DNA from: a virus | Direction: 5' to 3' (one strand) | Length of the DNA stretch: 64,000 bases | IMG/VR virus record: IMGVR_UViG_3300050343_000150 | Span: 27,748 to 91,747 of that record | In this document: one piece after another, positions 16,299-47,392 of the stretch | How positions within the stretch are numbered: position 1 is the first letter of the stretch | Layout: every line of letters begins with the position of its first letter | Position numbers and translations under genes: made by a program | The notes under the pieces: model-generated | Seen by the model: only the letters and a program-made list of their open reading frames with translations | What the model was told of the DNA's origin: nothing | Database searches by the model: none

Positions 16299-17000
16299 TT
16301 ATATCACCATTTTATCTTCGGAGTTTAATACTCCTAGTATTCTTTTTGCTAGGACATTACCAAGTCCCTCTATCTCACTTATTTCTTCTATCGAAGCCTC
16401 GCCTACTTCCATTATAGAACCAAACTTCTTAATTAACAACTTTGCCTTCTTTGGACTTATACCCTTGATAGTACAAAGTACATCTATACGTAAATCAGTA
16501 GTAGAAATTTTCTTTCTAACTAGACTTGGCGTATGAATTTCTCTATCTATTGGTTGCATTTTAGATACAACCGATATGAGCCGACCTGCCTCCTTAGCAC
16601 TGTTAACCCATATAACACTACAATCAGTGTCTAATATTATTTTACCAAATGCCCCATCAAACTTATTTCTAAGTAAACGTGCTTGGTTTCCTCTATTTTT
16701 TGTTACCTTAACAAAGGTAAGATAATTTTCTATTGCTTCGGAAAAAGTACCATATACTATTACTACATTGTTCAAGAATGTAGCATCCATGTTATCTATC
16801 TGATTCCATAACCGTTTGTTTATTACTGATTGTAGAAAGTCAAAAGACGACTTGGCTTCAAAACATACATTTGCAAAAACATAATCACCTACATCTAACC
16901 ACATCTTTTCATATGGTATGTTTAACATTTCACAGTTTCTTATTACATGTTCTGTTAGTTCTGAATTTTCCCTACTATCAATTTTAAGTACTTCCATCAT
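16299..17000 (-). CDS. ERCC4/XPF (Hef-like) structure-specific nuclease with HhH
   Basis: IDSRE, GDYV, EAKS..DF..S...RL.NQ, and two HhH motifs (IKGIS, IEGLG). Confidence 0.85.
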   Translation of the reverse strand: MMEVLKIDSRENSELTEHVIRNCEMLNIPYEKMWLDVGDYVFANVCFEAKSSFDFLQSVINKRLWNQIDNMDATFLNNVVIVYGTFSEAIENYLTFVKVTKNRGNQARLLRNKFDGAFGKIILDTDCSVIWVNSAKEAGRLISVVSKMQPIDREIHTPSLVRKKISTTDLRIDVLCTIKGISPKKAKLLIKKFGSIMEVGEASIEEISEIEGLGNVLAKRILGVLNSEDKMVI

Positions 17001-19318: not shown

Positions 19319-19745
19319 TTTTATTCCTCTGTGTCATTACTTTTGTTAAATCTTGCATAAAGATATTCATGCAATCAACACATGTACAATCTTTACTATG
19401 TTGTTTAATTTCAACAACGGTAGTATTCATTTTTTTCGCTTCTTCGATTAGATTTGAAGGAGGTTTTGATATAAGTGTAATTACACCTTTATCATAAGTC
19501 AATCCAATATATTCTCTTGAATCAAAGAATATATTTTGTTTCTTATCACGATTAACTATTACTGTTTTATTTTTTCTAGATGATAGTTTTGTTTTAACCT
19601 TACCAATATCAGACTTAATTTCTTTTTTATAGAAAGAAAACCAGTCTTTAATCCATGTTGAAAAAGAAGATGTGCGTTTTTTTATATTATCCACTCTTCT
19701 CTTATTAGTCCATGATAGACTACTGTATAAATTATCTAAAACCAT
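19311..19745 (-). CDS. Hypothetical protein
   Basis: ORF overlapping neighbours; H..DCTCVDC motif. Confidence 0.5.
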   Translation of the reverse strand: MVLDNLYSSLSWTNKRRVDNIKKRTSSFSTWIKDWFSFYKKEIKSDIGKVKTKLSSRKNKTVIVNRDKKQNIFFDSREYIGLTYDKGVITLISKPPSNLIEEAKKMNTTVVEIKQHSKDCTCVDCMNIFMQDLTKVMTQRNKNE

Positions 19746-20617
19746 TCTTCCAAACTCCTTTGATTAACGTCTCGCATAATTTGTAGTGTGTTCCATCCCA
19801 TTGCATTGAATACTGGTTCAGCCTTTTTAACGACTGATTCAGCATAATGTCTCCAATCAGGAGTAAACTGATTGAATTTATCTGCCGTTAATAGTGAAAT
19901 ATAGTTAGGAACAACTGTTTTACCAGTTATTGGATTATAGTAATTATTGTTACAATCCTTGATTCTAATATAAAGATAAGAATCTTCTATTGGTTCATAT
20001 CCTAATTTATGGTTGAATAGTACACCTTCAATACCCGAACCAATTGTGGGTCTTTTTCCACCAATAGTTTGGAAGGACTTGGGTGCAGCACAACATTCTT
20101 CTTCCATTAATTCAAAAATTGTACTTGTCTTTCTACAATTTTGACAGACAACCTTAAATCTTTCTTCGCGATATCTACTTCGCTTGATAATATCTGATAA
20201 TGGTATCTGTCCATGCATAACAGAATTATATTTCTCATTTAAGTAAGAAACTATTTCTTGTTCAGGTATATTGTTAACCCATTTTTTGAGAAGACTGATT
20301 TGCGTTTCCTTGGCTAATTTAGTTGAAGAAACTCTTTTAGCAGTGAAACCTGTCATAACAAATTCCTCTTCTTCTAAGAAGTCCCCATCTTTCCAAGTAA
20401 TTAACCCTGCATTTCTATTTTTAGTAGCCCCTACACCTAATGATTTGAAGTATTTTTCAAATTCTAAGGTTACAGGATGTTCTTTCAGACCCATAACATT
20501 GGGAAATAGTTCTCTAACATGTTCATTTAACACTACTAGTGCTTTTTCGGCAGTTTCAATGTTATTATCTTCTATTTTTACATAAATAGAATCAGTATGT
20601 CCATACACTACCTTCAT
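19736..20617 (-). CDS. polB: Family B DNA polymerase, C-terminal subunit (motif C, thumb)
   Basis: YGHTDS motif C variant, LEFEK, KNRNAG, Zn-finger insertion CQNC...CC. Confidence 0.85.
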   Translation of the reverse strand: MKVVYGHTDSIYVKIEDNNIETAEKALVVLNEHVRELFPNVMGLKEHPVTLEFEKYFKSLGVGATKNRNAGLITWKDGDFLEEEEFVMTGFTAKRVSSTKLAKETQISLLKKWVNNIPEQEIVSYLNEKYNSVMHGQIPLSDIIKRSRYREERFKVVCQNCRKTSTIFELMEEECCAAPKSFQTIGGKRPTIGSGIEGVLFNHKLGYEPIEDSYLYIRIKDCNNNYYNPITGKTVVPNYISLLTADKFNQFTPDWRHYAESVVKKAEPVFNAMGWNTLQIMRDVNQRSLEEWF

Positions 20618-20820: not shown

Positions 20821-22553
20821 TTATATCCCTCACTTTGAAAGCGGCGGCTCTGATTGCTTCTCTAGCACTAGCAGTAATACTAGCGGCTAAATCAACATTG
20901 GCCCAACCAAATCCCTGATACGCAATAATACCGTAGAAAGATGCAGATCAAGCCGTTTTACTGCTAACTGATTATTATTCCATTTAATGTATTCATCTTT
21001 AGTTGTTGCTTCTTTCATCTTTTTCTTATACTCGTTTCTTAAATCTTTAAGTTCAAGAACGGCTTTAGGTAGTACAGACCTAATTTGTCTGTTTTGTAAT
21101 ATCATCATCTCTTCTCTAGTAACTTCACTAGAAATCTTTAGGTATTTTTATATTAACACCAAACTCTGTTACTACGTCTGGATTTAGTCTCCCATGAAAT
21201 ATTTCGTGCTATCATCATAGAGGATATAGTCCAGCAAAGTCAAATGCGGCTACACCCTGATGGAGTCCATTAGTACCCTCACTCAATGGGTCATATACCA
21301 TTGCCCCATCATAGTTTATTCTGTCACCTTTCCTCCCCCGTAGGTGCTTTCCAAGTAGCATTACGCATGAAATATATTCCTCCCATGTTGCTTGCATAGA
21401 AACATGCATCAAATGGTGCTTTCAATAATCGTTGTAATGAGAGAACAGCGTCAACACAATGATTCTATTCATCAATTCTTTTGATTAACTCAACATCCTT
21501 GAAAGCATATTCTAGATAGGTATCTGAATCTTCTAACCATGCCCTTCTAAAGAACTCATTCTTATCAGGAAACTTCTCACTTACTAACTTAACATCACCA
21601 AGTACACTTTCTGAAACATAGTCCAAAGAAAGTGAAGGTAAAGTTCCACGTTGAGCATCATTCCATTGTCGCTCGAACACTAAATCAAGTGCTACTGTAA
21701 TCATACCTTTAATTGGTTGAGATACAGGAGAGTAACCTTCTACTCTTGACTTCCATATAGTTGGCTTGTTCTTCTTCCAACCAATACCAGTTATCTCATC
21801 AAATGGAGATAGTAGTCTTGGGTCTATTCCATGATGTACCATTCTAGTCAATAGTACAGGTATGTCGAACTTCCATCCAAACCATGAGATAAGCATATCA
21901 GGTTCTTTGTCCATAGCAAATGCTAGAAATCCTGTAAGCATATTATGCTCTCCTGTATATCTATGAAGAATGAAGTTATCATTATCTTTCAATACTACAT
22001 GTTTCCTAGCCTCTGAAAGATCAGGATACCAAGCAAATACATGATACTCATCATCATAGTTATCGTATATTACAATACAAGTAATTGCTTCATCATACTT
22101 ACCACCTTGTTGCCATTCCATATCCCAATACCATCTACGTAAGTTTTGTTCAGGTATTTCTTTTACTTCATCGACTGCATATCTATAATGATGTTGAACA
22201 TCACCCTCATATGTTTTCATACCTCTAGCCTCTAGAACTATTCTTACATCTTTAGCATATTTAGGATGTTTGGGTTGCCAAGTTACTTTGACTAGTTCTT
22301 CATTATCTAAGTTAACCCAATCACCATTCGTATAACTTACAACTAACTTGTAGTGTGAGTTTGCTCCACCCCACTTTTCCTTGAGATATATATCTTCATT
22401 TAACTTATTATCTTGGTCAGGACTAAATACGTCAACTGCTCTAACAAAGAAATACGGAGAGAAGTCGTCATGAGAAATTGTATTCTCACAACGTACTCCT
22501 TCTACGTCTCTCCATCTAAGATGGATGCCTTGTTCTGTATCTGTAATTATCAT
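20821..22553 (-). CDS. polB: Family B DNA polymerase, N-terminal subunit (exonuclease, motifs A and B); internal frameshifts
   Basis: WDME, FGWKFD, YAFKD exonuclease motifs; FDFAGLYP motif A; QLAVKRL.ASFYG motif B; ends ...AREAIRAAAFKVRDI* at 20821. Confidence 0.85.
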
Positions 22554-27412: not shown

Positions 27413-28264
27413 TTATAACCATCTCATTAAAGAAGTGGAAGGTGTTACTGGTGTTTTTGTTTTACTGGTTCTATTTTTACGTAGTTTAAGTACTCTCAGT
27501 TCAGTGACTGAAAGTGTGTTTTTACAGTAGTCCTGAAAATCAGGGCTTTTTAGTAAGTCTTTGAAAAGATATACTTGAGAAGGCCGCATTTTAAGCCTCC
27601 GCAAAATTCTCGGTAATCTAGAATACTCTTTTCTTTGTGGTGGTGTCATCTTTCTGTACATTCTACCATCGTGGGCATATGCTAACATCTCGTAGAAGTA
27701 TGTTTTATTCCATTTTCTTTTTACTTTAGCATCAATAAACATTAATTTGTTAGGGTGAATATTGGGTGCTAGCCAAGAGATAAATTGTATATCAGCAGGT
27801 TCTGAAATTTTCAACATGTCTGCAATAACATCTCTATTTGAATTACGAAGGTAGTCGCCTACCATGGTGAAAATATCTACTTCATAATTTTGAGGTTCAA
27901 CTGAACGTGGTGCGATTTCATTTATTTCGTCTCGTAATGATTTCTTGGTTGCTCTTTTTAGTTTACATAAATTGTATAACTTCTTAGGTACATCTTTTTG
28001 ATTCATAGAACACAAAACTGTTTGTCCTCTATATTGTAAGATGGTTTTTCTAATTAAGTCAATATTAGGTTTGTAATTACACTCTCTGATAATTATTCCA
28101 ACATCAGCAGGAATACTTAGGTTGTCTTCGATATCATATTCATTAGCATACACGATGATAGGAGTATCTGATGTGTATTCTTTTGCTTTAGTTATTTTAT
28201 CTGTGCCTTCTTTTCCTACTATTATTATTGCTCTATTTTTATTGTTCATTGTCAATAGACTCAT
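27413..28264 (-). CDS. Degenerate AAA+ protein, possible clamp-loader large subunit
   Basis: IIIVGKEGTDK degenerate Walker A; near rfcS; C-terminal 'SLMRWL' PIP-like end. Confidence 0.45.
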   Translation of the reverse strand: MSLLTMNNKNRAIIIVGKEGTDKITKAKEYTSDTPIIVYANEYDIEDNLSIPADVGIIIRECNYKPNIDLIRKTILQYRGQTVLCSMNQKDVPKKLYNLCKLKRATKKSLRDEINEIAPRSVEPQNYEVDIFTMVGDYLRNSNRDVIADMLKISEPADIQFISWLAPNIHPNKLMFIDAKVKRKWNKTYFYEMLAYAHDGRMYRKMTPPQRKEYSRLPRILRRLKMRPSQVYLFKDLLKSPDFQDYCKNTLSVTELRVLKLRKNRTSKTKTPVTPSTSLMRWL

Positions 28265-28556
28265 TTACAGCCCTCACTTCCATTATTTCTTCGTAAGTAG
28301 TTTTACATTGGTTACAATTTACTACTATTATGAACCAACGTAAGTCATTTTCATACTTTACTCCTGCTTCATATGAGAATGTTTTACTGCCACATTCTCT
28401 ACATCCATCTGAAACCCGTCTCAAAACATGGTGTTCAATGATGTCTTCGTCTGAAATCTTGTCTCCTGCACCTTTGACATATGATACTGTCAATTGACAA
28501 GGGACACAGTAATCAGAAACTGTTTCTCTTAAATTACATCTAGGACACAATTTCAT
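28239..28556 (-). CDS. Zinc-binding protein
   Basis: Four CxxC pairs. Confidence 0.6.
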   Translation of the reverse strand: MKLCPRCNLRETVSDYCVPCQLTVSYVKGAGDKISDEDIIEHHVLRRVSDGCRECGSKTFSYEAGVKYENDLRWFIIVVNCNQCKTTYEEIMEVRAVNESIDNEQ

Positions 28557-28948
28557 AATAACCCCTTCATAGTTAAAATTTCATCTAATCCACTTGCGGA
28601 TAAGTGTTGTTTAGATTTTACCATGAATAATGTTTTAGTGAACGTTGTCCATTCTCCATTAGTCGGTGTATCCAAAGTTAACAAATTTAGAACTCTTGTT
28701 AAATTATCTAATCCACTAATTATTAATATTGGTCTTGGTCTACCTTTGTGTTCCGATTCTTTGTAGTTAGATGTTATCTCATATTGTAATAGAGAACGTT
28801 GAATCCCTAATAGAAAATCAGAATTACCCCTAATACATATTCTCAATCTAACTCTATAACCTAAATTAGATTTGGGACTACGCACAATATTTACCTCCGC
28901 ACTAGCAAGAGAAATGAATATTCCATTCAATGTATCGCTGTTGTACAT
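28553..28948 (-). CDS. Single-domain LAGLIDADG-like protein, degenerate
   Basis: LNGIFISLAS helix, GYRVRLRI, KQHLSASGLDEI tail typical of LAGLIDADG proteins; no acidic catalytic residue in the motif. Confidence 0.6.
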   Translation of the reverse strand: MYNSDTLNGIFISLASAEVNIVRSPKSNLGYRVRLRICIRGNSDFLLGIQRSLLQYEITSNYKESEHKGRPRPILIISGLDNLTRVLNLLTLDTPTNGEWTTFTKTLFMVKSKQHLSASGLDEILTMKGLL

Positions 28949-30515: not shown

Positions 30516-30732
30516 TATTATTCCTCATTTTAATTACTTTTTCGAGAGCCTTGTGAACATCTTTCATCTCGTCCATGTTCATTCTAATACCTTTTTTGGT
30601 AGGATTACCATTTATATGCCAACGCACATCTACTACATGTAATTTCCAATATTCGCCAGTTCTGATGATTAACTCATTACTAGCGTCTCTTGGTATTCTC
30701 GCAATTATTTTTTCATCCTTCAAGCCAACCAC
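30484..30732 (-). CDS. PC4/YdbC-like ssDNA-binding protein
   Basis: VDVRWH...PTKKGI signature. Confidence 0.8.
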   Translation of the reverse strand: MVGLKDEKIIARIPRDASNELIIRTGEYWKLHVVDVRWHINGNPTKKGIRMNMDEMKDVHKALEKVIKMRNNNEFNKNEQDV

Positions 30733-34105: not shown

Positions 34106-34280
34106 CGATTATTTCATGCGTGATTCCATCCATTGTTGCGCCTACGACACTTAGTGCATCTTCTAACACAGTTCTTCGCACTACATTCCTCAACTGTGGT
34201 AGTTTTTCGTATTCTTCTATTACCATACTAAAATGGTATTGCATTTTCTTTAGTGTTTGTATTATATTATCTTCCATCAA
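34023..34280 (-). CDS. Hypothetical protein
   Basis: ORF overlapping the tfb stop. Confidence 0.45.
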   Translation of the reverse strand: MMEDNIIQTLKKMQYHFSMVIEEYEKLPQLRNVVRRTVLEDALSVVGATMDGITHEIIDAWRHQQQQKIYYGDNENEQKENKDRN

Positions 34281-35146
34281 TATGCCCCGCTTAAAAATTG
34301 GTCTACATCCATTTCCATTAGTTCTTTTTTAGTAAGACCTAATGAATTAGACAAGTCCTTGGTTGCCATACGCAATCCGATTGTAGAAGCATTTCCTGAC
34401 TTATCTACTAACTCTGTTTGTGTATGGATTTCATCTTCCATCTGTCCTACTAACCAAAGAGTAGCACAGATTAAATTGGTAGTATATCTTTTACCAACCT
34501 CATTGAAAAACACTTCAATGTGTTCAACAACTCGTATTGATTTACTTCTATAATTAGAAGATACATTATCTAATTTGTCAAGAATACCTATTGTTATTAG
34601 AACAGGGTTATGTGATGACAGTATGTGTGATTTTCTAAAGAATCTTGCAATACGTTTTGCGTATTTAGATATCTTACTTTTACTCACTTTACTATATCCA
34701 CTGTGTTGTTTCAAAACAACTGGGACACCTGCCTCCTTTAACATAAAATATGTTAATGCTGCTGCTCTATCTTCTATTGGTATACCTCGTAAAACATGTT
34801 CATTTTTTAATGAGATAAAATATCCTTTGACACTATTCCTAATGTCTGAGGAAACATTGTAATAAGACAATATCATATTACACAATCTAAACATTCTCTT
34901 ATCTGCTTCAGTATAGGGATTGCTCCAAATATTTTGTGTTTTAAGTCTATAACTCATCTTAGTAGGAGTTTCAATAATATGAGAACCTAAATCTCTTGTT
35001 ACTTCGTAAGAAGAATCTTCTTTCCACTTAACCGTCTCTTCAAAGGGTCGTATCATTTGAATCAACCCACAACTTGAACACACTTTTTCACCCAATACTT
35101 CGTCGAAGTAGTATGTATTGTGATTACACTCAACGCAAGCCATCAT
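34277..35146 (-). CDS. tfb: Transcription initiation factor B (TFB/TFIIB) homolog
   Basis: N-terminal Zn ribbon CVEC...GEKVCSSCG; cyclin-fold repeats with RG.PIE..AAA..Y. Confidence 0.8.
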   Translation of the reverse strand: MMACVECNHNTYYFDEVLGEKVCSSCGLIQMIRPFEETVKWKEDSSYEVTRDLGSHIIETPTKMSYRLKTQNIWSNPYTEADKRMFRLCNMILSYYNVSSDIRNSVKGYFISLKNEHVLRGIPIEDRAAALTYFMLKEAGVPVVLKQHSGYSKVSKSKISKYAKRIARFFRKSHILSSHNPVLITIGILDKLDNVSSNYRSKSIRVVEHIEVFFNEVGKRYTTNLICATLWLVGQMEDEIHTQTELVDKSGNASTIGLRMATKDLSNSLGLTKKELMEMDVDQFLSGAY

Positions 35147-39126: not shown

Positions 39127-40245
39127 TTATTTTTCCTCCTTAAGTTCATCGATTAATTTCGATACTTCTCCTTTAGATAGTGAATCTATATCTCCTTCGT
39201 ACCCCAATGCTCTTAGGTACTTTATCTGAGGTATGGTAGGGTTATCATTATACCGATTAATTATCTTCATTAATGTGCTAATTTGCTTGGGTGAGATATC
39301 CTTTCGTTCAGATACTCTATTTACCATATCAGTTAGGAATTTAGTTTCCCAATCATTAGATGCTAGTTTAGTAGTGAAGTGTGGAATACCGAAATATTCG
39401 CAACTCTCACGGAAATCTCTTTCGGTTTTCTCAGTCCAAACTTTATTCCTCAACTCTAACTGTTGTTCATATTTCATCTTCCTTTGCTGTGCGGCTTCAA
39501 TTGCATCATCTTCTTCTTTGACTTCTTGACGATGTTGAGCAATGAGAGCGTGGAATATAGATAAGTCTTGCATTAATCTATCGTTAGGATAACCACGACC
39601 ATTCTGTTGATTTCTAGTGTTGTCAGGATGATTCCATCTCCACACAATAGAAGCCATTTCATAATCGGGAGTATATACTTCACCACGACTAACCTTTCTA
39701 ATTTTAGTTTGTTCAGTACGAATACCTAACTTATTATCCCACATATATCTACCAGTTCTTCTGACATTAATACGTAAATCCAATTCTTTAATTTCATTAA
39801 ATGTTGCAATGAAATCTTCTCCATTTGCATTCCACCATGCATCTTTCTTTAACGCACTAACTCTAACATCAATCCATTCTTGAATCATACTTTCTGTAAT
39901 AGCATCTGAATCAATACCAGTCTCTTCTGAAATTGCTCTAAGAATCATGTAAGAATTAATGTGGTCTGAACCAACACATTCTCTAACACCAGTTTCTGTG
40001 TTTTCTATTTCGAAATGATACACAATTCTATGTCCACATAAACATGTTCTAGGATGTTTGGCTGCCCAATTCGGTCTTGGAGTTCCAATACCTTGCCACC
40101 ATACTTCACCAGTTGCACGCCATTCATGTTTAGCATCATCGTAGTTATCTGAAAGAGATAATTCTGTCATATTCCTTTTCAGGAGTTTATCCCATCTACC
40201 ATTACCAAGTTCTCTTTTACCTAGTTTGTAGTCTTCTATCTCCAT
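39127..40245 (-). CDS. Hypothetical protein with CxCGH...VGSDH metal site
   Basis: 372-aa ORF; C-terminal PTxxQxxYL...SKGEVSKLIDEL helical motif. Confidence 0.65.
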   Translation of the reverse strand: MEIEDYKLGKRELGNGRWDKLLKRNMTELSLSDNYDDAKHEWRATGEVWWQGIGTPRPNWAAKHPRTCLCGHRIVYHFEIENTETGVRECVGSDHINSYMILRAISEETGIDSDAITESMIQEWIDVRVSALKKDAWWNANGEDFIATFNEIKELDLRINVRRTGRYMWDNKLGIRTEQTKIRKVSRGEVYTPDYEMASIVWRWNHPDNTRNQQNGRGYPNDRLMQDLSIFHALIAQHRQEVKEEDDAIEAAQQRKMKYEQQLELRNKVWTEKTERDFRESCEYFGIPHFTTKLASNDWETKFLTDMVNRVSERKDISPKQISTLMKIINRYNDNPTIPQIKYLRALGYEGDIDSLSKGEVSKLIDELKEEK

Positions 40246-42500: not shown

Positions 42501-42717
42501 TTGAAAAGTGATGTTAATTTAGGTAAAAAGATATTGGGACAAATATACGAATATCTTTATGTGATATTATGGAATCTATCGCGTAAATGGATAAGTTGTG
42601 ATGAACTTTTGGTATAGATTCTAGGTAACAATAAACTGGCTGAGTGCTATATATAGGCTCTGACCACACCTACATGAGCAACTTTCCATACTGTCAAAGT
42701 TAATCTTCATTTTTACT

Positions 42718-42754
42718 ACCATATGGTAGGCCACTTTTGTAAGACTACCTTATA
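42718..42754 (+). promoter_or_regulatory. Repeat element copy 1 (ACCATATGGT + hairpin + TATA-like)
   Basis: ATG at 42778, 60 nt after repeat start. Confidence 0.75.
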
Positions 42755-42777
42755 CCGGACTATACCTAGATAATAAT

Positions 42778-43158
42778 ATGCCACTAATAGTAGGAATAGA
42801 GAATGGAATAGAGAGAGGATTTACTGAAAGAGAACTATCGTTGACCAACGGGTTTGGTTTCGGTATGTTAGCAACGAATGCAGGAGTAGGATTCAGTGTT
42901 TGGGAGAAAATCACGGTTGAGGAGTTCAGACGCAGGATGCTACTATGTAACTTTGCGAACAGCATATACAACATGGAGGACTTCTACGAGATAATGACAA
43001 TCGAGTTCTGTCAGAGATTGAAGGATGCTGATTGGTATTGTAATACTAGCACATACGACAAGCGAAAGTTTAACAGTGAATATAAGAACTGGTTAGTCAG
43101 ACTGAACGAGATGAACTTCCGTGATTTTGAGAGAAAGATGCAACAGGAGGAAGAGTGA
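42778..43158 (+). CDS. Hypothetical early protein
   Basis: Probably leaderless ORF at fixed distance from repeat 1. Confidence 0.7.
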   Translation: MPLIVGIENGIERGFTERELSLTNGFGFGMLATNAGVGFSVWEKITVEEFRRRMLLCNFANSIYNMEDFYEIMTIEFCQRLKDADWYCNTSTYDKRKFNSEYKNWLVRLNEMNFRDFERKMQQEEE

Positions 43159-43314
43159 ATGGGAGATTATGGAATATTTTGTGAATGTTGTAACGTATAT
43201 TATGAGTTCGAGGTTGAAGGATACCTAGGAAATATCTCAGATTATTATTGTGAATCATGTGGATATGATATGGAGAATTGTGAAGGAGGTTGCGAACGTG
43301 TTCCTTCGGTTTAG
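43159..43314 (+). CDS. Small acidic Zn-finger protein (51 aa)
   Basis: Hand-translated MGDYGIFCECC...YCESCG...; GGAGG upstream. Confidence 0.55.
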   Translation: MGDYGIFCECCNVYYEFEVEGYLGNISDYYCESCGYDMENCEGGCERVPSV

Positions 43315-43352
43315 AGTTGAGACTAATGAATACACATGGGAGTTGTGGGATT

Positions 43353-43475
43353 ATGTTTATTGATATAATTAGATGTAATGGCTGTGGTAGAAATACTATC
43401 AGACCTGAAGATGAAGAATATTTCTCAGAATGGGATGATTGCCTGTGCTATTTGGAAATGGAGGAATTAAGATGA
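43353..43475 (+). CDS. Small Cys-rich protein
   Basis: MFIDIIRCNGCG...DCLC; ATGA overlap with next gene. Confidence 0.45.
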   Translation: MFIDIIRCNGCGRNTIRPEDEEYFSEWDDCLCYLEMEELR

Positions 43476-43738
43476 GTAATTACCCCGACGGAATGACTGC
43501 TGATGACCATGCTTACCTAGATGGGTATAGTGGTTGTTTACATGAAGATGTTCATGTTGAGGATGCAAGAGTTCGTATTCGTGTTCCCAAGAATATGAAA
43601 GAAGGTGACTGGATAGAGGAACATAGTTTCGAAGTAGAAGGATTATTTGTGTGTTCAGCCTGTGGCGAATCAAAATGGGTCTCCATAGATATAGATACAT
43701 ATATTTTGGAACTTGATGACAATACTGTTTTCGATTAA
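43472..43738 (+). CDS. Acidic Zn-ribbon protein
   Basis: MSNYPDG...CLH...CSACG; GGAGG upstream. Confidence 0.6.
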   Translation: MSNYPDGMTADDHAYLDGYSGCLHEDVHVEDARVRIRVPKNMKEGDWIEEHSFEVEGLFVCSACGESKWVSIDIDTYILELDDNTVFD

Positions 43739-43742
43739 TGTG

Positions 43743-43759
43743 CCACCCTTCGGGGTGCG
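43743..43759 (+). terminator. cUUCGg tetraloop hairpin after gene end
   Basis: CACCC-TTCG-GGGTG; similar CCC-TTCG-GGG at 46711-46720. Confidence 0.5.
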
Positions 43760-43781
43760 CCGTTACACTACAAAGTCTCCC

Positions 43782-43820
43782 ACCATATGGTAAGTAACTT
43801 TGTCAACTTACCTTATATAG
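43782..43820 (+). promoter_or_regulatory. Repeat element copy 2
   Basis: ACCATATGGTAAGTAACTTTGTCAACTTACCTTATATAG. Confidence 0.8.
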
Positions 43821-43879
43821 CAGGTGGCTAGACTAATTATGTTGCTTGGAGGCGACAAAATCAATAAGGAGACGATAAG

Positions 43880-44341
43880 ATGGCAGTAGAAAATTGGAAT
43901 ACAGAAATAGAAGCCCCGACAGTAAAATACCTAGAACAAGGAACTCTAAATGAGTTTGCTCAAGACTTGATTCGTGGATGGTTAGATGAAGGAAGAACAA
44001 CCCCTCGCTCTCAGAGAAGAGTTACAGGATTCATTAAAGAGATTATCAATAAGAATGATGATTCACCTTTCAAGGCAACACGAACAGGCTCAAGAACATA
44101 CACTCTACCACAAGAACAGCAGGAAGCAATGAATGCAGTTTGTAGTATGGTAGACGGTCAACTTGTTCTATCAGAAGATGCTCACACATACTTCCGTACA
44201 TACTACGGAAGGACTAACTCTGATGGCACTAAAAAGACATCATGGGAAAACAACGAAGAATTAATTAATACTTTAGTTCTTAGCAAAATGCAGGAATCTT
44301 TCATAAGTGATTATAAGAAATCACTAAAGGAGGATAACTGA
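43880..44341 (+). CDS. Hypothetical early protein flanked by complementary UTR arms
   Basis: 153-aa ORF with AAGGAG ribosome-binding site. Confidence 0.7.
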   Translation: MAVENWNTEIEAPTVKYLEQGTLNEFAQDLIRGWLDEGRTTPRSQRRVTGFIKEIINKNDDSPFKATRTGSRTYTLPQEQQEAMNAVCSMVDGQLVLSEDAHTYFRTYYGRTNSDGTKKTSWENNEELINTLVLSKMQESFISDYKKSLKEDN

Positions 44342-44420
44342 TTTCATTTGCCTCCAAGCACCACCTTAAACGATAAATAACTAATTTTGTTGTTTTTGGA
44401 GGTCCTTGGACAAAGTTAGA

Positions 44421-44459
44421 ACCATATGGTAGTAACTTTTGTCAACTACCTTAATATAG
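44421..44459 (+). promoter_or_regulatory. Repeat element copy 3
   Basis: ACCATATGGTAGTAACTTTTGTCAACTACCTTAATATAG. Confidence 0.8.
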
Positions 44460-44477
44460 GAATTGGCTAGGGTATTT

Positions 44478-44870
44478 ATGTTGGTTGACGTGACCAACAC
44501 GCTATGACTGAATAATGCCGTTGTATAGGCATAAGGTAATACTAGTTTGTTCTGTGGTGGAACAGCGAGCCGGTGTGGTAAAGCATTGGCAGTACAATGA
44601 GAGTAACTCCTCACTAGTATGTATAGTCGGGTTAAATGCTCTAAGCAAAATATACACCCTATGATTATTGGAAGACGCTGGAAACAGTGATGAAACCTAG
44701 CATCCAACTCTTAGTAGAAGAGCAACAGAAAACAATTGAAGAACTAAACACTATAATTAGTAAGGACACAGTGTATTCTACGTGAATACGGACTAGATAC
44801 GAAACTTCTCGAACTATCTAGTGGCCGAGAGAGTTCTTATTGTTAGTTTGCTCTTCTACATCTGAGGTAT
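44478..44870 (+). ncRNA. Candidate ~390-nt highly structured ncRNA
   Basis: Occupies a whole repeat unit with no + strand ORF; many nested stems including a perfect 12-bp 44714-44725/44848-44859 helix. Confidence 0.65.
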
Positions 44871-44886
44871 GTTATACAAAGTTACA

Positions 44887-44926
44887 ACCATATGGTATTC
44901 AACTTTCGTAAGGATACCTCATATAG
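44887..44926 (+). promoter_or_regulatory. Repeat element copy 4
   Basis: ACCATATGGTATTCAACTTTCGTAAGGATACCTCATATAG; ATG at +60. Confidence 0.8.
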
Positions 44927-44946
44927 GACTAAGGTAGGTAAATAAT

Positions 44947-45132
44947 ATGGAAGCAGAAACCAAAATAGAAGCAATGCCAGCATATACGATTGAAGTAGGA
45001 CATATGAAGTCCGGTTCTGATATCGTTCTGATATTAAAAAGTCTGAAAGTGAATAAAGATTCACTTCCGGAAGCAATAGCAGAAATTAAAGCCGCACTAG
45101 AAGTGTTCAATGATATGGGGTTGGGACAATGA
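44947..45132 (+). CDS. Hypothetical early protein
   Basis: ORF at fixed distance from repeat 4. Confidence 0.65.
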   Translation: MEAETKIEAMPAYTIEVGHMKSGSDIVLILKSLKVNKDSLPEAIAEIKAALEVFNDMGLGQ

Positions 45133-45869
45133 GTGTAGCATATATTAGAACTTATGAGTTAGAATATGATGTAGTGCCATCTGACCAACAATTGAAAGCA
45201 ATTAACACTCTTTTAATGCAAGAAAATCTTCCTGCTATTGATAGATGGGACACTGAAGTATTAGAAGATAAATATGGTTTAGTAGATAAAGTAACTAAGA
45301 CTGAAACTTATGCTGTTGGTTGGGAAATTGATGGGGAACAAGTCGATAAAGTATTATTCTTTGAATATCAATCTAGAGCAGACTCAGTAGTAGAAGATTT
45401 ATCAGCAGTAGGAATAGATGCGACAATTACACACAGTAAATCAGAAGAAAGTAAAACTGTTGAACAGACACTGAGAGGAGAAAAGTTGATTTTACTTAGA
45501 AAGTTAGGAAACTACCGATTAAATGGCTATGGTGATAAACCATTAGTATATGATAATGAAGTTGAACTATCAGCGTCATTAATTACATCATATAGAAATA
45601 CTAAATTGAGATTTACTTCTCAATGGATGACTGACAAGGTTGCACGCAAGACACAAATAGAATCTATGGTAGTTGATACACCATTGAATGATATGGCTGA
45701 AATACAACATATAGTTGAAACTATATTACATACTGTTACAGAATATGATGTTTCAGAAGCAGAAATAAACTGTCATTTCGATGCTAAAACAGAGAGTCGT
45801 TCTGAATGTACTCCTGATATCATCAACAGAGTTAAAGAAGCAAAGAAATTGTTAGAGGTGGAACAATGA
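45129..45869 (+). CDS. Hypothetical acidic protein
   Basis: 246-aa ORF with ATGA overlaps. Confidence 0.7.
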   Translation: MSVAYIRTYELEYDVVPSDQQLKAINTLLMQENLPAIDRWDTEVLEDKYGLVDKVTKTETYAVGWEIDGEQVDKVLFFEYQSRADSVVEDLSAVGIDATITHSKSEESKTVEQTLRGEKLILLRKLGNYRLNGYGDKPLVYDNEVELSASLITSYRNTKLRFTSQWMTDKVARKTQIESMVVDTPLNDMAEIQHIVETILHTVTEYDVSEAEINCHFDAKTESRSECTPDIINRVKEAKKLLEVEQ

Positions 45870-46048
45870 AAACACCTTATACTATCACAAAAGAGTTGTG
45901 GGATGATTATTATACAATGCAGCAGAGTGGTCAAATGAATATGTTTGGCTACCCTACTGTTGTGTATTTTATATCGCATAACGCCTACCCTAAAGCCCTC
46001 AAACATTTTAATGAAGAAGGTAATACTTCTGATTTAGTGATTGAGTGA
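45866..46048 (+). CDS. Small hypothetical protein (DUF5049-like 'QQSGxxNMF')
   Basis: MQQSGQMNMFG motif; GAGGTG upstream. Confidence 0.6.
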   Translation: MKTPYTITKELWDDYYTMQQSGQMNMFGYPTVVYFISHNAYPKALKHFNEEGNTSDLVIE

Positions 46049-46350
46049 TGTTGGGCAACAAACAAAAAACGAGGAGCGACTACAATAGTGGTGTAGTCCT
46101 AAACCTGTAACCAAACGAGTTGAAATAAACTCAGAAAGATAGGCAATCCTCATTACATTCCTTACTAATTAGTAAATACAGGAAACGATTGACAAGTAAT
46201 CCCTAGTGAGCAATACTATGTACAGCGCAATAATTCTTTAGAGCATTCTAGACAATCCTAAAGTTATTAGTCGGATATGAATCATTTTACGCGAACAACT
46301 ATTACCTCTGTCATGACTTTCCTGAGGAATGAGGTATTATCATACAACGT
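46048..46350 (+). ncRNA. Candidate ~300-nt structured ncRNA or 3' element
   Basis: No ORF; stems GACTACA/TGTAGTC, GAGGA/TCCTC, GAGTT/AACTC, TTCCT/AGGAA, TACCTC/GAGGTA; ends pair ATGTTG/CAACGT. Confidence 0.5.
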
Positions 46351-46357
46351 CGATACT

Positions 46358-46394
46358 ACCATATGGTAGTAACTTTTGTCAACTACCTTTATAT
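46358..46394 (+). promoter_or_regulatory. Repeat element copy 5
   Basis: First 32 nt identical to copy 3; ATG at +59 (46417). Confidence 0.8.
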
Positions 46395-46416
46395 CTCACA
46401 TAGTCAGCATTATAAT

Positions 46417-46710
46417 ATGAAAGAAACAGTAACAAGACATCGATTTATTGACTTATTTATGAAAATTAGACCCGACAACTTCAGCAGACCCGGCTTACAT
46501 GCATTATTTGATTATCTCGAAGAACTTGAAGAAGACATAGGCGAGGAAATTGAATTTGATGTAATCGCCTTATGTTGTGATTTTAGCGAGTATAAAGATA
46601 TTAATGAAATCAGCGAGGCATATGGCAAAGATTTTTCAGACTCTGAAGACCTCGGAGACTATACGCAAATTATCGATTTTGAAGGGGGTATAATAATTCA
46701 AGATTGGTAG
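46417..46710 (+). CDS. Very acidic small protein (possible DNA mimic)
   Basis: MKETVT...NFSRPGLHALFDYLEELEEDIGEEIEFDVIALCCDFSEY; start reassigned using repeat spacing. Confidence 0.7.
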   Translation: MKETVTRHRFIDLFMKIRPDNFSRPGLHALFDYLEELEEDIGEEIEFDVIALCCDFSEYKDINEISEAYGKDFSDSEDLGDYTQIIDFEGGIIIQDW

Positions 46711-46739
46711 CCCTTCGGGGAACTAAATACAAAGTCAGT

Positions 46740-46778
46740 ACCATATGGTAATAACTTTTGTCTATTACCTTTAGATAG
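46740..46778 (+). promoter_or_regulatory. Repeat element copy 6
   Basis: ACCATATGGTAATAACTTTTGTCTATTACCTTTAGATAG; ATG at +59. Confidence 0.8.
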
Positions 46779-46798
46779 GAGTTAGTTTGTACATTAAT

Positions 46799-47059
46799 AT
46801 GAACAGATACATCAAAAACCTACCAAAAGCAAACTTGAAGCAATTACATGACATATTAGTTAATTATAATTCATATGCTGACCATCCGGATGATGAAGGG
46901 ACTCTAACTATTGGACAAATCTTCTTTATTCAGGATTTAATGAAACAAAAGAAAAAACAAGGTCAGAAGTTATATTGTATTGACCCACAATGTTCATTCT
47001 GTACTAATGGAGAGAATCATCGGCAATTTCATCAAGATGATGCAGCAGCATCTAGTTGA
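46799..47059 (+). CDS. Hypothetical protein with C-terminal Cys/His cluster
   Basis: MNRYIK...CIDPQCSFC...H. Confidence 0.6.
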   Translation: MNRYIKNLPKANLKQLHDILVNYNSYADHPDDEGTLTIGQIFFIQDLMKQKKKQGQKLYCIDPQCSFCTNGENHRQFHQDDAAASS

Positions 47060-47093
47060 GGTTGCTGTCTCTTCACTAGCACTGCGTTCCGCA

Positions 47094-47134
47094 ACCATAT
47101 GGTGGTAACTTTTGTTAACTACCTTAATATATAG
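47094..47134 (+). promoter_or_regulatory. Repeat element copy 7
   Basis: ACCATATGGTGGTAACTTTTGTTAACTACCTTAATATATAG; ATG at +59. Confidence 0.8.
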
Positions 47135-47152
47135 AATAAATAACTTAATTAT

Positions 47153-47323
47153 ATGGACTTTGAAGAAATGTTTGATAAAATGCAAGTAACACAGGTAGTA
47201 TGGGATTTTCCAAGAATATGGGTGAAACTCACAGTAGTAGATGATGGTAGTGCCATTTGTTTAAAGTGTGCTATCGAACAAATAGGGTTCACGGAGACTT
47301 CTCGCTTACTTATGATGTATTGA
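47153..47323 (+). CDS. Small hypothetical protein (56 aa), absent from ORF track
   Basis: Hand-translated MDFEEMFDKMQ...ICLKC...LMMY*. Confidence 0.55.
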   Translation: MDFEEMFDKMQVTQVVWDFPRIWVKLTVVDDGSAICLKCAIEQIGFTETSRLLMMY

Positions 47324-47354
47324 GTAGGTGAGGTGTCCCGCCTACGTCTTTAAC

Positions 47355-47392
47355 ACCATATGCTAGTAGCAAATTTTATCCAACCATATGGC
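47355..47392 (+). repeat. Two degenerate palindrome-only copies closing the array
   Basis: ACCATATGCT (47355) and ACCATATGGC (47383), followed by a T-tract. Confidence 0.6.

Follow-up and report, generated by a model that had tools for sequence, protein, structure and literature searches.

The cassettes of integrons are promoterless, carry one attC site each and are expressed from a common Pc promoter, and the attC sites require the IntI tyrosine recombinase. The hairpins of phage N4 lie on the template strand, with the start ~11 nt away, and a single-subunit polymerase of the virus recognizes them. No published description of the signal reported here was found in the literature searched, the nearest being the PeSLs (promoter-early stem-loops) of T4-type phages (Arbiol et al. 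2010, PMC2839356) and the intergenic-repeat promoters (class I/II) of HF2, an archaeal tailed halovirus, whose repeats are thought to be bound by virus-encoded regulators (Russ, Pfeiffer and Dyall-Smith 2021, PMC8707807).

The window, i.e. the whole stretch of DNA analyzed (64,000 nucleotides, positions 27,748 to 91,747 of the IMG/VR record IMGVR_UViG_3300050343_000150), belongs to a 91.7 kb genome with a completeness of 93%. Judged by gene content, its source belongs to the magroviruses, tailed viruses that infect marine group II archaea, and resembles those of group B: among its genes are those for a TFIIB-like protein, XPF/ERCC4, a split PolB, an archaeal ATP ligase, RNR and a LAGLIDADG-like protein, and this set agrees with the group B magroviruses of PMC5434244. 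The TFIIB homologue encoded by the virus implies that the host polymerase is used.

The palindrome ACCATATGGT is found in the window in seven exact copies (at 42718, 43782, 44421, 44887, 46358, 46740 and 47094, all within 42718-47103), with no further exact copy in the whole 91.7 kb genome; at most one mismatch being allowed, the window contains 12 matches versus 2.3 ± 1.4 expected (12 reached in 0 of 100 shuffles). A preliminary description of this DNA had each of the seven copies followed by a hairpin and a TATA-like box, with an ATG at +57 to +60, which is exactly what we find: the distances from the repeat start to the ATG are, in order, 60, 58, 57, 60, 59, 59 and 59 nt, and the stems present are GGTAG/CTACC, GGTAAGT/ACTTACC, GGTAGT/ACTACC (twice), GGTATTC/GGATACC, GGTAATA/TATTACC and GGTGGT/ACTACC. 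The degenerate copies that it placed at 47355 and 47383 do have one-mismatch cores, but neither matches the hairpin model at E <= 1.

The element, here called a joint, is a mirror-symmetric hairpin-ATAT-hairpin, which the preliminary description missed: upstream of the core, on the opposite strand, most window copies have a mirror-image stem-loop that was absent from it. The invariant palindrome (A)CCATATGG(T) sits between the two stem-loops, one per strand, each with a GGT...ACC closing stem, 2-8 more freely co-varying pairs and a loop with CTTTG immediately 3' of the 5' arm. Each stem-loop is part of the cassette lying on the same side of the core, and half-joints are found at both ends of 10 arrays. 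A full cassette opens with the stem-loop and the TATA box, followed after ~28 nt by the ATG or RNA start and then by the gene(s), in many cases with a cUUCGg mRNA hairpin behind them; it closes with the mirrored stem-loop.

The array opens with joint 1, the core of which (42718-42727) lacks its outer (upstream) half. The promoter-side stem-loop (42725-42749, plus strand; GGTAG, loop with CTTTTG, CTACC; 29.3 bits) is followed by the TATA-like box TTATACCG and putative leaderless start of cassette 1 (42750-42780, plus strand; ATG at 42778), with four small ORFs ending at 43738. Another TATA box, CTATATATAG, has no joint and is followed after 27 nt by an ATG that lies 43 nt upstream of joint 1 (42647-42676 in all, plus strand); transcripts from this box would cross joint 1. 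A GC stem with a TTCG loop (43744-43757, plus strand), 3' of the final stop codon in cassette 1, is read as an mRNA 3' hairpin. Joint 2 comprises a gene-end stem-loop (43754-43784, minus strand; GGTG, loop with CTTTG, CACC) and, on the plus strand (43782-43820; 33.4 bits), the core (43782-43791), the promoter-side stem-loop (43789-43812) and the TATA box TTATATAG (43813-43820); cassette 2 has its start region ATGTTG at 43840 (plus strand) and an ORF from 43880 preceded by a GGAG leader. In joint 3 the gene-end stem-loop (44401-44423, minus strand; GGTTCT, loop with CTTTG, AGGACC; 29.1 bits) is followed by the core, stem-loop (44428-44450) and TATA box TTAATATAG (44421-44459, plus strand; 53.6 bits), and the cargo of cassette 3 is an ORF-less structured RNA (44480-44707, plus strand) that begins at the predicted transcription start and matches Rfam manA below the threshold.

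Joint 4 has a bulged gene-end stem-loop (44866-44889, minus strand; 24.5 bits) and a core, stem-loop (44894-44918, one T.G pair) and TATA box TCATATAG (44887-44949, plus strand) leading to the ATG at 44947, from which the plus-strand ORFs of cassette 4 follow (61, 246 and 60 aa). The gene-end stem-loop of joint 5 is weak (46333-46360, minus strand; 4-bp stem, degenerate box, 19.7 bits), while its core, stem-loop (46365-46387) and TATA box TTTATATC (46358-46419, plus strand; 53.6 bits) precede a 97-aa ORF with the ATG at 46417, and a CCC-TTCG-GGG hairpin (46711-46720, plus strand) lies 3' of the cassette 5 stop codon. Joint 6 consists of a gene-end stem-loop (46719-46742, minus strand; 21.4 bits) and a core, stem-loop (46747-46769) and TATA box TTTAGATAG (46740-46801, plus strand; 50.6 bits; ATG at 46799, 86 aa), and joint 7 of a core, stem-loop (47101-47123, one G.T pair) and TATA box TTAATATAT (47094-47155, plus strand; 51 bits; ATG at 47153, 56 aa). 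Two decayed cores, ACCATATGCT and ACCATATGGC (47355-47392), without a canonical promoter-side hairpin, close the array. The cargo had been described as heterogeneous, with 1-4 small ORFs or an ncRNA, and the per-unit ORF survey agrees (in order: four ORFs; one ORF with a leader; an ORF-less RNA; three ORFs and 300 nt of non-coding DNA; one ORF in each of the last three); no Pfam family was found in any cargo protein.

The covariation of the stem arms, proposed earlier, is real and far above chance in a large alignment. Elements from non-redundant relatives were aligned structure-blind, anchored on the TATA box (47 elements, then 116); in the 116 elements, stem positions 4-7 are paired in 75, 62, 50 and 43% versus 36, 28, 30 and 25% by chance (z = 9.5, 8.7, 5.4 and 4.7). 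The covariance model (240 matches) gave 96.3% paired cells versus 79.6 ± 0.9 in shuffles and 111 cells with changes on both sides versus 25.7 ± 4, and every variable pair shows all four Watson-Crick types. Covariation is present at both cassette ends (5' halves: n = 366, z = 20; 3' halves: n = 359, z = 17). The gene-end half is promoterless yet nearly equally conserved, which indicates that the hairpin module is a feature of the cassette end and not simply a part of the promoter (z 17 vs 20). The spacers on the two sides of the core show no correlation with each other (z = 0.02), which makes the joint a pair of local hairpins and not one long palindrome.

A TATA-like T/C-T-A-T/A-A box begins straight after the closing ACC of the hairpin, and the ORF ATGs cluster 26-30 nt past the ACC, with a mode of 28 (37 of 83 half-elements with an ORF; 27-29 nt in the seven window copies). 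In archaeal TBP/TFB-dependent promoters an AT-rich TATA box precedes the transcription start by about 24-30 nt. The spacing in the joints supports the reading that they carry putative archaeal TATA-type promoters, transcripts from which are predicted to be leaderless; GGAG-type (Shine-Dalgarno) leaders are found on other genes of the genome. The 7 nt upstream of the TATA box are the 3' arm of the hairpin, where only the ACC is conserved and the remainder co-varies with the 5' arm; in this predicted layout the arm occupies the exact position expected for the BRE, as had been suggested. The manA-like ncRNA model begins 2 nt after the predicted transcription start, and the first stem of the ncRNA co-varies with the copy in the relative L129. 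Among relatives, the cUUCGg hairpins at gene ends are in the mRNA sense in a ratio of 89:5.

In IMG/VR the joint pattern was located first at 66 and then at at least 119 loci, on more than 100 related viral contigs. Exact cores are confined to a single 3-6 kb cluster in five of five relatives (four complete, one 76%), with no cassette seen outside the one array in these five, and bacterial and archaeal genomes gave only 18 scattered single matches, about the chance expectation; the joint-bounded cassette array is probably a magrovirus hallmark. Cassette order and orientation vary between relatives, with the changes at joints (breakpoints of cassette moves resolved to about ±20 nt), and cassettes in both orientations are found at 55 of 120 loci. 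The 97-aa cassette follows the 246-aa cassette in the window and in L011 and precedes the 153-aa cassette in L021, L036 and L060, the position of the 86-aa cassette varies, and the ncRNA cassette occupies a different slot in L129, with homology limited by the joints. The earlier suggestion of cassette-shuffling recombination sites is borne out insofar as cargo order is not invariant among relatives, but no gene for a tyrosine recombinase (integrase), a serine recombinase (resolvase) or a Y1 HUH protein was found in the 93%-complete genome (PF00589: no match at E <= 1, with the control positive in 14 of 14 genomes).

We consider it probable that the seven repeats serve as joints in a gene-cassette array, with twin hairpins, a welded TATA promoter and shuffling at the shared palindrome. 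The TATA box joined to the promoter-side stem-loop would recruit the host archaeal transcription machinery, and the leaderless transcripts of the joint promoters would form one special expression class. The hairpins would fold in one strand, that carrying CTTTG, and a probably dimeric factor would read their sequence and structure, acting on DNA at the cassette ends and insulating or regulating the cassettes; Pfam, PHROGs and fold searches of the neighboring conserved proteins gave no hairpin-binding factor. Recombination at the shared palindrome would gain, lose, move and flip cassettes, and general recombination between repeats is more likely to underlie the moves than a dedicated recombinase. 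An ocean archaeal virus would thereby keep small accessory genes as self-contained units fenced by a palindrome and hairpins.

A possible, if tentative, alternative is that the stem-loops function as RNA: read-through transcripts would be attenuated, terminated or marked for processing, as with PeSLs, and the cassettes shielded on both sides. On the CTTTG strand G.T is more frequent than A.C (53:18, p = 0.02, 116 elements; per end, 42:11 in promoter-side halves and 27:11 in gene-end halves, the latter asymmetry not being significant taken alone), and the promoter-side bias, which is for G.U in the sense strand, is equally compatible with an RNA hairpin in read-through transcripts. The stems (5-7 bp, loops of 10-20 nt) fold with -1.4 to -3.7 kcal/mol as DNA, weakly enough that extrusion from the duplex would probably need the help of a protein or a stage in which the DNA is single-stranded, and are more stable as RNA (-5.2 to -7.9 kcal/mol). 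The geometry also suits, with one hairpin per cassette against each incoming direction, the jointless promoter at 42647 would send transcripts across joint 1, and the stem-loops of PeSLs are proven terminators (PMC2839356). Against an RNA function, a cUUCGg hairpin distinct from the joint stem-loops is already present at the 3' end of cassettes, the zero spacing between stem and TATA box suggests a link at the DNA level, and the invariant core and loop boxes across viruses with ~30% protein identity point to specific recognition and not mere stability. Moreover, archaeal termination is known to rely on oligo-T tracts and not on hairpins, whereas here the T run lies within the loop and not 3' of the stem.

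A bolder form of the cassette-array reading is that the joints are the substrate of a dedicated machine that reads single-strand-folded DNA, either for cassette mobilization (an archaeal-virus counterpart of attC recombination, with an enzyme of an unrecognized family) or for licensing the transcription of one class of genes by way of hairpins at the BRE position. We regard this as doubtful; if either were true, no earlier case would exist of a DNA signal that depends on structure and is linked to a promoter of archaeal type. Joints as sites of dedicated structure-specific recombination or transposition, where inverted hairpin ends meet at a TA/ATAT center as in attC or TA-targeting inverted-repeat elements, seem unlikely. 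The hairpin modules lie at the ends of every cassette as inverted terminal repeats, with half-joints at array ends, structure is kept but sequence is not, the joints are where cassettes have been gained or lost, moved or inverted, and the promoterless ends are conserved as expected if selection acted on the cassette as a mobile element; however, the genome has none of the three recombinase or HUH genes searched for, the five relatives have no cassette beyond the single array, and the virus's own RadA-type and nuclease set acting on 30-60 bp repeats could explain the moves.

It is quite improbable that the joint is a plain double-stranded operator of a dimeric regulator with incidental hairpin potential. 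A perfect 8-10 bp palindrome between symmetric CAAAG/CTTTG boxes, a core retained at array ends despite one missing half, and a site just 5' of the TATA box, suited to an activator or repressor, would favor it, but a duplex-reading protein leaves the compensatory changes at variable positions unexplained, the box-core distance differs by up to 7 bp, tracking stem length (CTTTG-to-core offset 5-12 nt; rho 0.43, p = 7e-8), and the promoterless gene-end halves are conserved equally or almost as well. Conserved small hairpins do precede a block of small genes, but single-stranded-DNA promoters of the phage N4 kind, used by an RNA polymerase that the virus encodes, are most improbable: this earlier analogy fails on geometry, with a canonical TATA box and ~28 nt between hairpin and start, the wobble bias favors the non-template strand, no match to a T7/N4-type polymerase (PF00940) was found in a search whose control was uninformative, and the viral TFIIB homologue implies the host polymerase.

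The joints compare with the known systems as follows. Like the N4 promoters, they have small, conserved hairpins in which certain bases of the stem and loop are fixed, ahead of a block of small, possibly early, genes; they differ in the 26-30 nt that separate the end of the hairpin from the start and include the TATA box, and in the favored strand, which is the non-template one. The attC analogy holds for an array of small, mostly single-gene cassettes of variable order, separated by imperfect palindromes of which the folded structure rather than the sequence is conserved; the joint stems do co-vary, yet the core, the closing pairs and the loop box of the joints do not vary in sequence. It does not extend to the cassettes, which are not promoterless in the magrovirus, each having its own TATA promoter and start and a hairpin module at both ends, nor to the enzyme, no IntI-type tyrosine recombinase having been found in the magrovirus genome.

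HF2 and the magrovirus are both archaeal tailed viruses in which intergenic repeats are restricted to one gene block, carry TATA promoters and are conserved through the virus genus. Sequence similarity is absent: the HF2 motifs quoted in PMC8707807 do not occur in the joints, and the array region resembles no phage or halovirus record, apart from one 78-bp chance-level DNA match in the phage collection. Palindromic cores, hairpins and covariation are not described for the HF2 repeats as a class (the words "palindrome", "hairpin" and "stem-loop" do not occur in PMC8707807, which has only a 9-bp inverted repeat in IR4.5), and the HF2 repeats, unlike the joints, are not cassette boundaries at both gene ends. 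Promoter activity was demonstrated experimentally for HF2, whereas the joint promoters are predicted from sequence.

PeSLs and joints alike are short intergenic repeats in which a stem-loop is joined to a strong host-type promoter. Both crowd into one hyperplastic region of small ORFan genes, and in both, relatives are told apart by the units that have been inserted, deleted or replaced at these repeats. The PeSL host is bacterial and the promoter a sigma-70 early one, whereas the joints have an archaeal TATA promoter with a predicted leaderless start. A PeSL has a single G/C-rich stem-loop, at a variable place in the promoter and without conserved sequence, for which a role as RNA terminator is proven; the joints have two mirror-image stem-loops that flank an invariant palindrome and have conserved closing pairs and a conserved loop box. 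The PeSL analogy raised earlier therefore stands for the repeated promoter and stem-loop module clustered in a small-gene block and for the gain, loss or replacement of cassettes at the modules, and not for the sigma-70 early promoter of T4-type phages. On these features the joints are an analogue of the PeSLs and not a member of their class.

The seven exact copies of ACCATATGGT lie where the preliminary description had placed them (42718-47103), and with one mismatch allowed the core is matched 12 times in the window, against 2.3 matches expected; the remainder of the 91.7 kb genome contains no further exact copies. The claims about the stems and the ACTTT(T/C)GT loop motif also hold, as do those about the TATA-like box and the ATG at +57 to +60. 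The degenerate copies reported at 47355 and 47383 do exist as one-mismatch cores, but neither fits the hairpin model. Each joint (a core palindrome, CCATATGG, with mirror-image stem-loops on either side) reads outward from its centre, on either strand, as AT, GGT, 2-8 variable bases, a loop with CTTTG at its start, bases complementary to the variable ones, and ACC. A covariance model built from four window copies and run on 654 kb at E <= 1 yielded 240 matches, many of which are opposite-strand pairs on one core, including joints 3, 4, 5 and 6 of the window. The outermost joints lack the outward-facing half at both ends of the array, in the window as well as in the nine relatives examined, which indicates that each hairpin is part of the cassette lying on its side of the core, and that each cassette bears an inverted pair of hairpin modules. 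A single long hairpin or cruciform spanning the whole palindrome, which ViennaRNA energy minimisation favours for joints 3 and 4, is ruled out: the left and right spacers of the same joint are uncorrelated (173 joints, z=0.02), so selection acts on two local hairpins and not on one long one.

The covariation of the hairpin arms holds in larger alignments anchored blindly with respect to structure, in which the position of the 3' arm was set solely from the TATA box and the distance to the ATG. Among 47 non-redundant elements, Watson-Crick pairs are found at position 4 in 38/47 (permutation expectation 17.7), at position 5 in 32/47 (14.7), at position 6 in 28/47 (16.5) and at position 7 in 24/46 (11.9); among 116 non-redundant elements, the frequencies are 75% at position 4 (permutation: 36%, z 9.5), 62% at position 5 (28%, z 8.7), 50% at position 6 (30%, z 5.4) and 43% at position 7 (25%, z 4.7). 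The model-fitted alignment leans towards structure, a lean of which the blind tests are free; in it, paired cells amount to 96.3% (79.6 +/- 0.9 in shuffles), both-side changes occur in 111 cells (25.7 +/- 4 in shuffles), and every variable pair shows all four Watson-Crick types. When the halves were assigned to cassette ends by coding strand (398 cassettes from 120 loci, median length 675 bp), covariation was evident at both ends (z=20 for 366 promoter-end halves and z=17 for 359 gene-end halves), and the CTTTG box was present in 97% and 92% of the halves, respectively. The distance from the core to CTTTG varies between 5 and 12 nt and tracks stem length (rho 0.43, p=7e-8), and variation of this kind would not be tolerated by a rigid duplex-binding dimer, but would be if the motif is displayed in a loop.

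On the promoter side, every half has its closing ACC directly next to a T/C-T-A-T/A-A box. Counting ORFs of 35 codons or more, 37 of the 83 ORF-bearing half-elements have their first ATG 26-30 nt past the ACC, with a sharp mode at 28. This spacing is that of a predicted archaeal TATA box to a leaderless start, in agreement with the promoter function proposed for the repeats. Unit 2 (the cassette following joint 2) keeps the conserved start region, followed by a GGAG leader, with the ORF 40 nt further on; genes elsewhere in the genome have GGAG-type leaders and no joint-type promoter. Among 379 gene ends, a GC stem with a TTCG loop was found 89 times in the mRNA sense versus 5 times in the opposite sense, with two occurrences in the window. 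Each cassette thus comprises a promoter, its cargo and a 3' hairpin, and is fenced on both sides. A strong TATA box without a joint, CTATATATAG, was found at 42647-42676 (+), 43 nt upstream of joint 1, with an ATG 27 nt on that opens a 9-codon frame only; transcripts starting from it would cross joint 1.

The main rival explanation is that the module is an RNA attenuator, which would shield each cassette from incoming transcription in a manner similar to the promoter-early stem-loops (PeSLs) of T4-type phages. The predicted stem energies are moderate for RNA (-5.2 to -7.9 kcal/mol) and weak for DNA (-1.4 to -3.7 kcal/mol), with modest single-copy z-scores. The type of mismatch bears on the strand that folds: G.T versus A.C on the CTTTG strand was counted as 53:18 in the blind set (composition predicts 61%; p=0.02), 42:11 at promoter ends, 27:11 at gene ends (a figure that is not significant alone), and 29:2 in the model-fitted, biased alignment. 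Tolerating one internal mismatch led to many G.A cells and small numbers, hence this variant of the counting was dropped and the anchored counts were relied on instead. The favoured strand is the non-template strand at promoter ends and is antisense to the cassette mRNA at gene ends, a symmetry more easily reconciled with a putative two-fold symmetric complex at the DNA level than with a hairpin formed in the mRNA of the cassette itself. We regard the attenuator as less likely than recognition of the folded modules in DNA.

Pattern scans of IMG/VR retrieved 66 loci with the core and loop motif and at least 119 loci with the symmetric pattern, and among the matches listed nearly all contigs are 25-100 kb in size. 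In five relatives searched in full (four complete, one 76%), all exact cores, 5-10 per genome, are grouped within a single stretch of 3-6 kb. Across 185,579 species genomes, the scan returned 18 scattered single matches in unrelated bacteria, approximately the number expected by chance, so the signal belongs to viruses; its origin in a host genome or host regulon is ruled out. Two complete joints, 462 bp apart (2127-2616), were found in a 14.7 kb contig (NZ_NZTP01000027.1) of a metagenome-assembled genome labelled Altibacter; this contig is probably a mis-binned magrovirus fragment. A literature search revealed no description of the joint element, and the terms promoter, palindrome and hairpin are all absent from the magrovirus papers.

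The window corresponds to positions 27748-91747 of a 91.7 kb IMG/VR virus record with an estimated completeness of 93%. It encodes tail and fibre proteins, ribonucleotide reductase, an archaeal-type ATP-dependent DNA ligase, an ERCC4/XPF nuclease with HhH motifs, a PD-(D/E)XK nuclease, ThiF- and JAB-like proteins, a family B DNA polymerase divided among several ORFs, and a 289-aa protein with a TFIIB zinc ribbon and a full-length but weak match to the TFIIB core domains. As judged from its predicted genes, the virus shares features given for the group B magroviruses of marine group II archaea, namely a LAGLIDADG-like gene, a split PolB, RNR, and an archaeal ligase within the replication block (PMC5434244). 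The polymerase pieces occupy at least four ORFs on the minus strand (19736-20617, 20887-21108, 21215-21409 and 21465-22553), i.e. more than the single split described for that group. In the GenBank phage collection, the array has no DNA relative and the 500-aa structural protein has no protein relative. Genes are oriented leftward from ~42.1 kb and rightward from 42.7 kb, with the repeat array at the start of the rightward block.

Comparison of related viral loci with the same array (numbered with the prefix L) revealed that the array constantly adjoins a conserved leftward block (TFIIB-like ... 372 aa, 85 aa, 108 aa) and that its own content is variable. The 97-aa cassette follows the 61/246-aa cassette in the window, L011 and L059, and lies between the 88-aa and 153-aa genes in L021, L036, L060, L063 and L068; the 86-aa cassette occupies three different positions. 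The 61-aa gene is joined to a 126-aa gene in L058, L122 and L133, and its homologue is inverted in L118 and L151. The ncRNA cassette, found between the 153-aa and 61-aa genes in the window and after the 246-aa cassette in L129, shows DNA similarity between these two loci from the 5' joint to the core of the 3' joint. Both cassette orientations occur within the same locus in 55 of 120 loci. Cargo order does vary among relatives, as had been suspected, with the 97-aa, 86-aa and ncRNA cassettes changing place, and cassette turnover occurs at joints. The genome (93% complete) contains no tyrosine recombinase, serine recombinase or Y1 HUH transposase.

Pfam searches assigned none of the cargo proteins to a family; most of the exchangeable cassettes are ORFans, which probably serve in host takeover or counter-defence. 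In cassette 1 (43159-43738, +), three of the four small proteins (51, 49 and 88 aa) possess paired, zinc-ribbon-like CxxC motifs; in halovirus HF2, small paired-CxxC proteins of the zinc-ribbon type were proposed as regulators of repeat promoters (PMC8707807). Unit 3 (44480-44707, +) has no ORF. It exhibits a full-length but sub-threshold match to the Rfam family manA (31.7 bits, gathering score: 55.2, E=2.8e-5), an RNA known from marine cyanobacteria and cyanophages, and the match begins 2 nt past the conserved ATG position. The copy of this RNA in L129 is 76% identical, with very conserved internal blocks, and resides in another array slot; pairing in the first stem is kept despite changes on both sides. 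An Rfam search of six close relatives gave no matches, including to the manA-like RNA. In the 300-nt non-coding tail of cassette 4, a stretch of 85 nt (46067-46151, +) is 97.6% identical to L021, with adjoining coding DNA at ~75%. ARAGORN did not identify it as a tRNA, nor were tRNA genes found in the other non-coding cargo, and it is probably a conserved structured RNA or a protein-binding site.

Among the 50-odd proteins searched against Pfam and PHROGs for a reader of the hairpins, the yield was the TFIIB homologue (34277-35146) and two weak matches below the cut-off, one to LAGLIDADG_3 (19.3 bits; 28553-28948) and one to PC4-like single-stranded DNA-binding proteins (18.3 bits; ~30550-30645 (-), a small frame flanked by the ligase gene and the following ORF). 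Further candidates are the XPF nuclease (16299-17000), the 372-aa protein, and the 61-aa and 246-aa cassette proteins (44947-45869). No relative in PDB, Pfam or Atlas was found for the 246-aa cassette protein, which is conserved in 26 loci. Of the neighbours of the array, the 372-aa protein (39127-40245, -) is the most conserved (38 loci), and a confident model was obtained for it (pLDDT 87). It has no Foldseek match at E <= 0.001 and none by profile against PDB sequences, and the best Z-scores in the VIA fold search were 3.7 (whole protein) and 3.0 (N-domain). Its C-terminus shows a weak DUF3072 signal, and a beta-beta-alpha stretch contains the invariant C68, C70, H77 and N82 and the near-invariant H95; the resulting impression of an HNH-like motif was not backed by the structure and profile searches.

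At the level of sequence, the joint combines a conserved folded module with a TATA-type promoter that is leaderless and class-specific; a second, mirrored module lies at the gene end, and an invariant palindrome links neighbouring cassettes. Core, closing pairs and loop box do not vary across viruses whose proteins are only ~30% identical, which argues for specific recognition. Some factor probably reads the folded modules and acts on DNA at cassette ends, and the palindrome probably serves as the recombination joint. In the surface ocean, magroviruses rank among the most abundant viruses, and their hosts are not culturable; to our knowledge, nothing is known about their timing of gene expression or their acquisition of accessory genes. 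As a marker, the joint is precise and simple to search for, and it identifies both one expression class and the hypervariable block of the genome. It delimits several hundred exchangeable cassettes, 398 of which were found with an unambiguous coding strand. It is also a rare case in which covariation places a folded nucleic-acid structure directly against an archaeal TATA box. We know of no use of such folded signals in archaeal transcription, thus the joint raises a specific question that could be addressed in vitro with archaeal TBP, TFB and RNA polymerase.

Of the analogies initially drawn, those to N4 hairpin promoters and integron attC sites fail on the defining features of these elements, and that to the T4-type PeSLs stands as a functional likeness but not as membership. 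The closest systems are these PeSLs (PMC2839356) and the intergenic-repeat promoters of halovirus HF2 (PMC8707807); the joint works like both, and is a member of neither.
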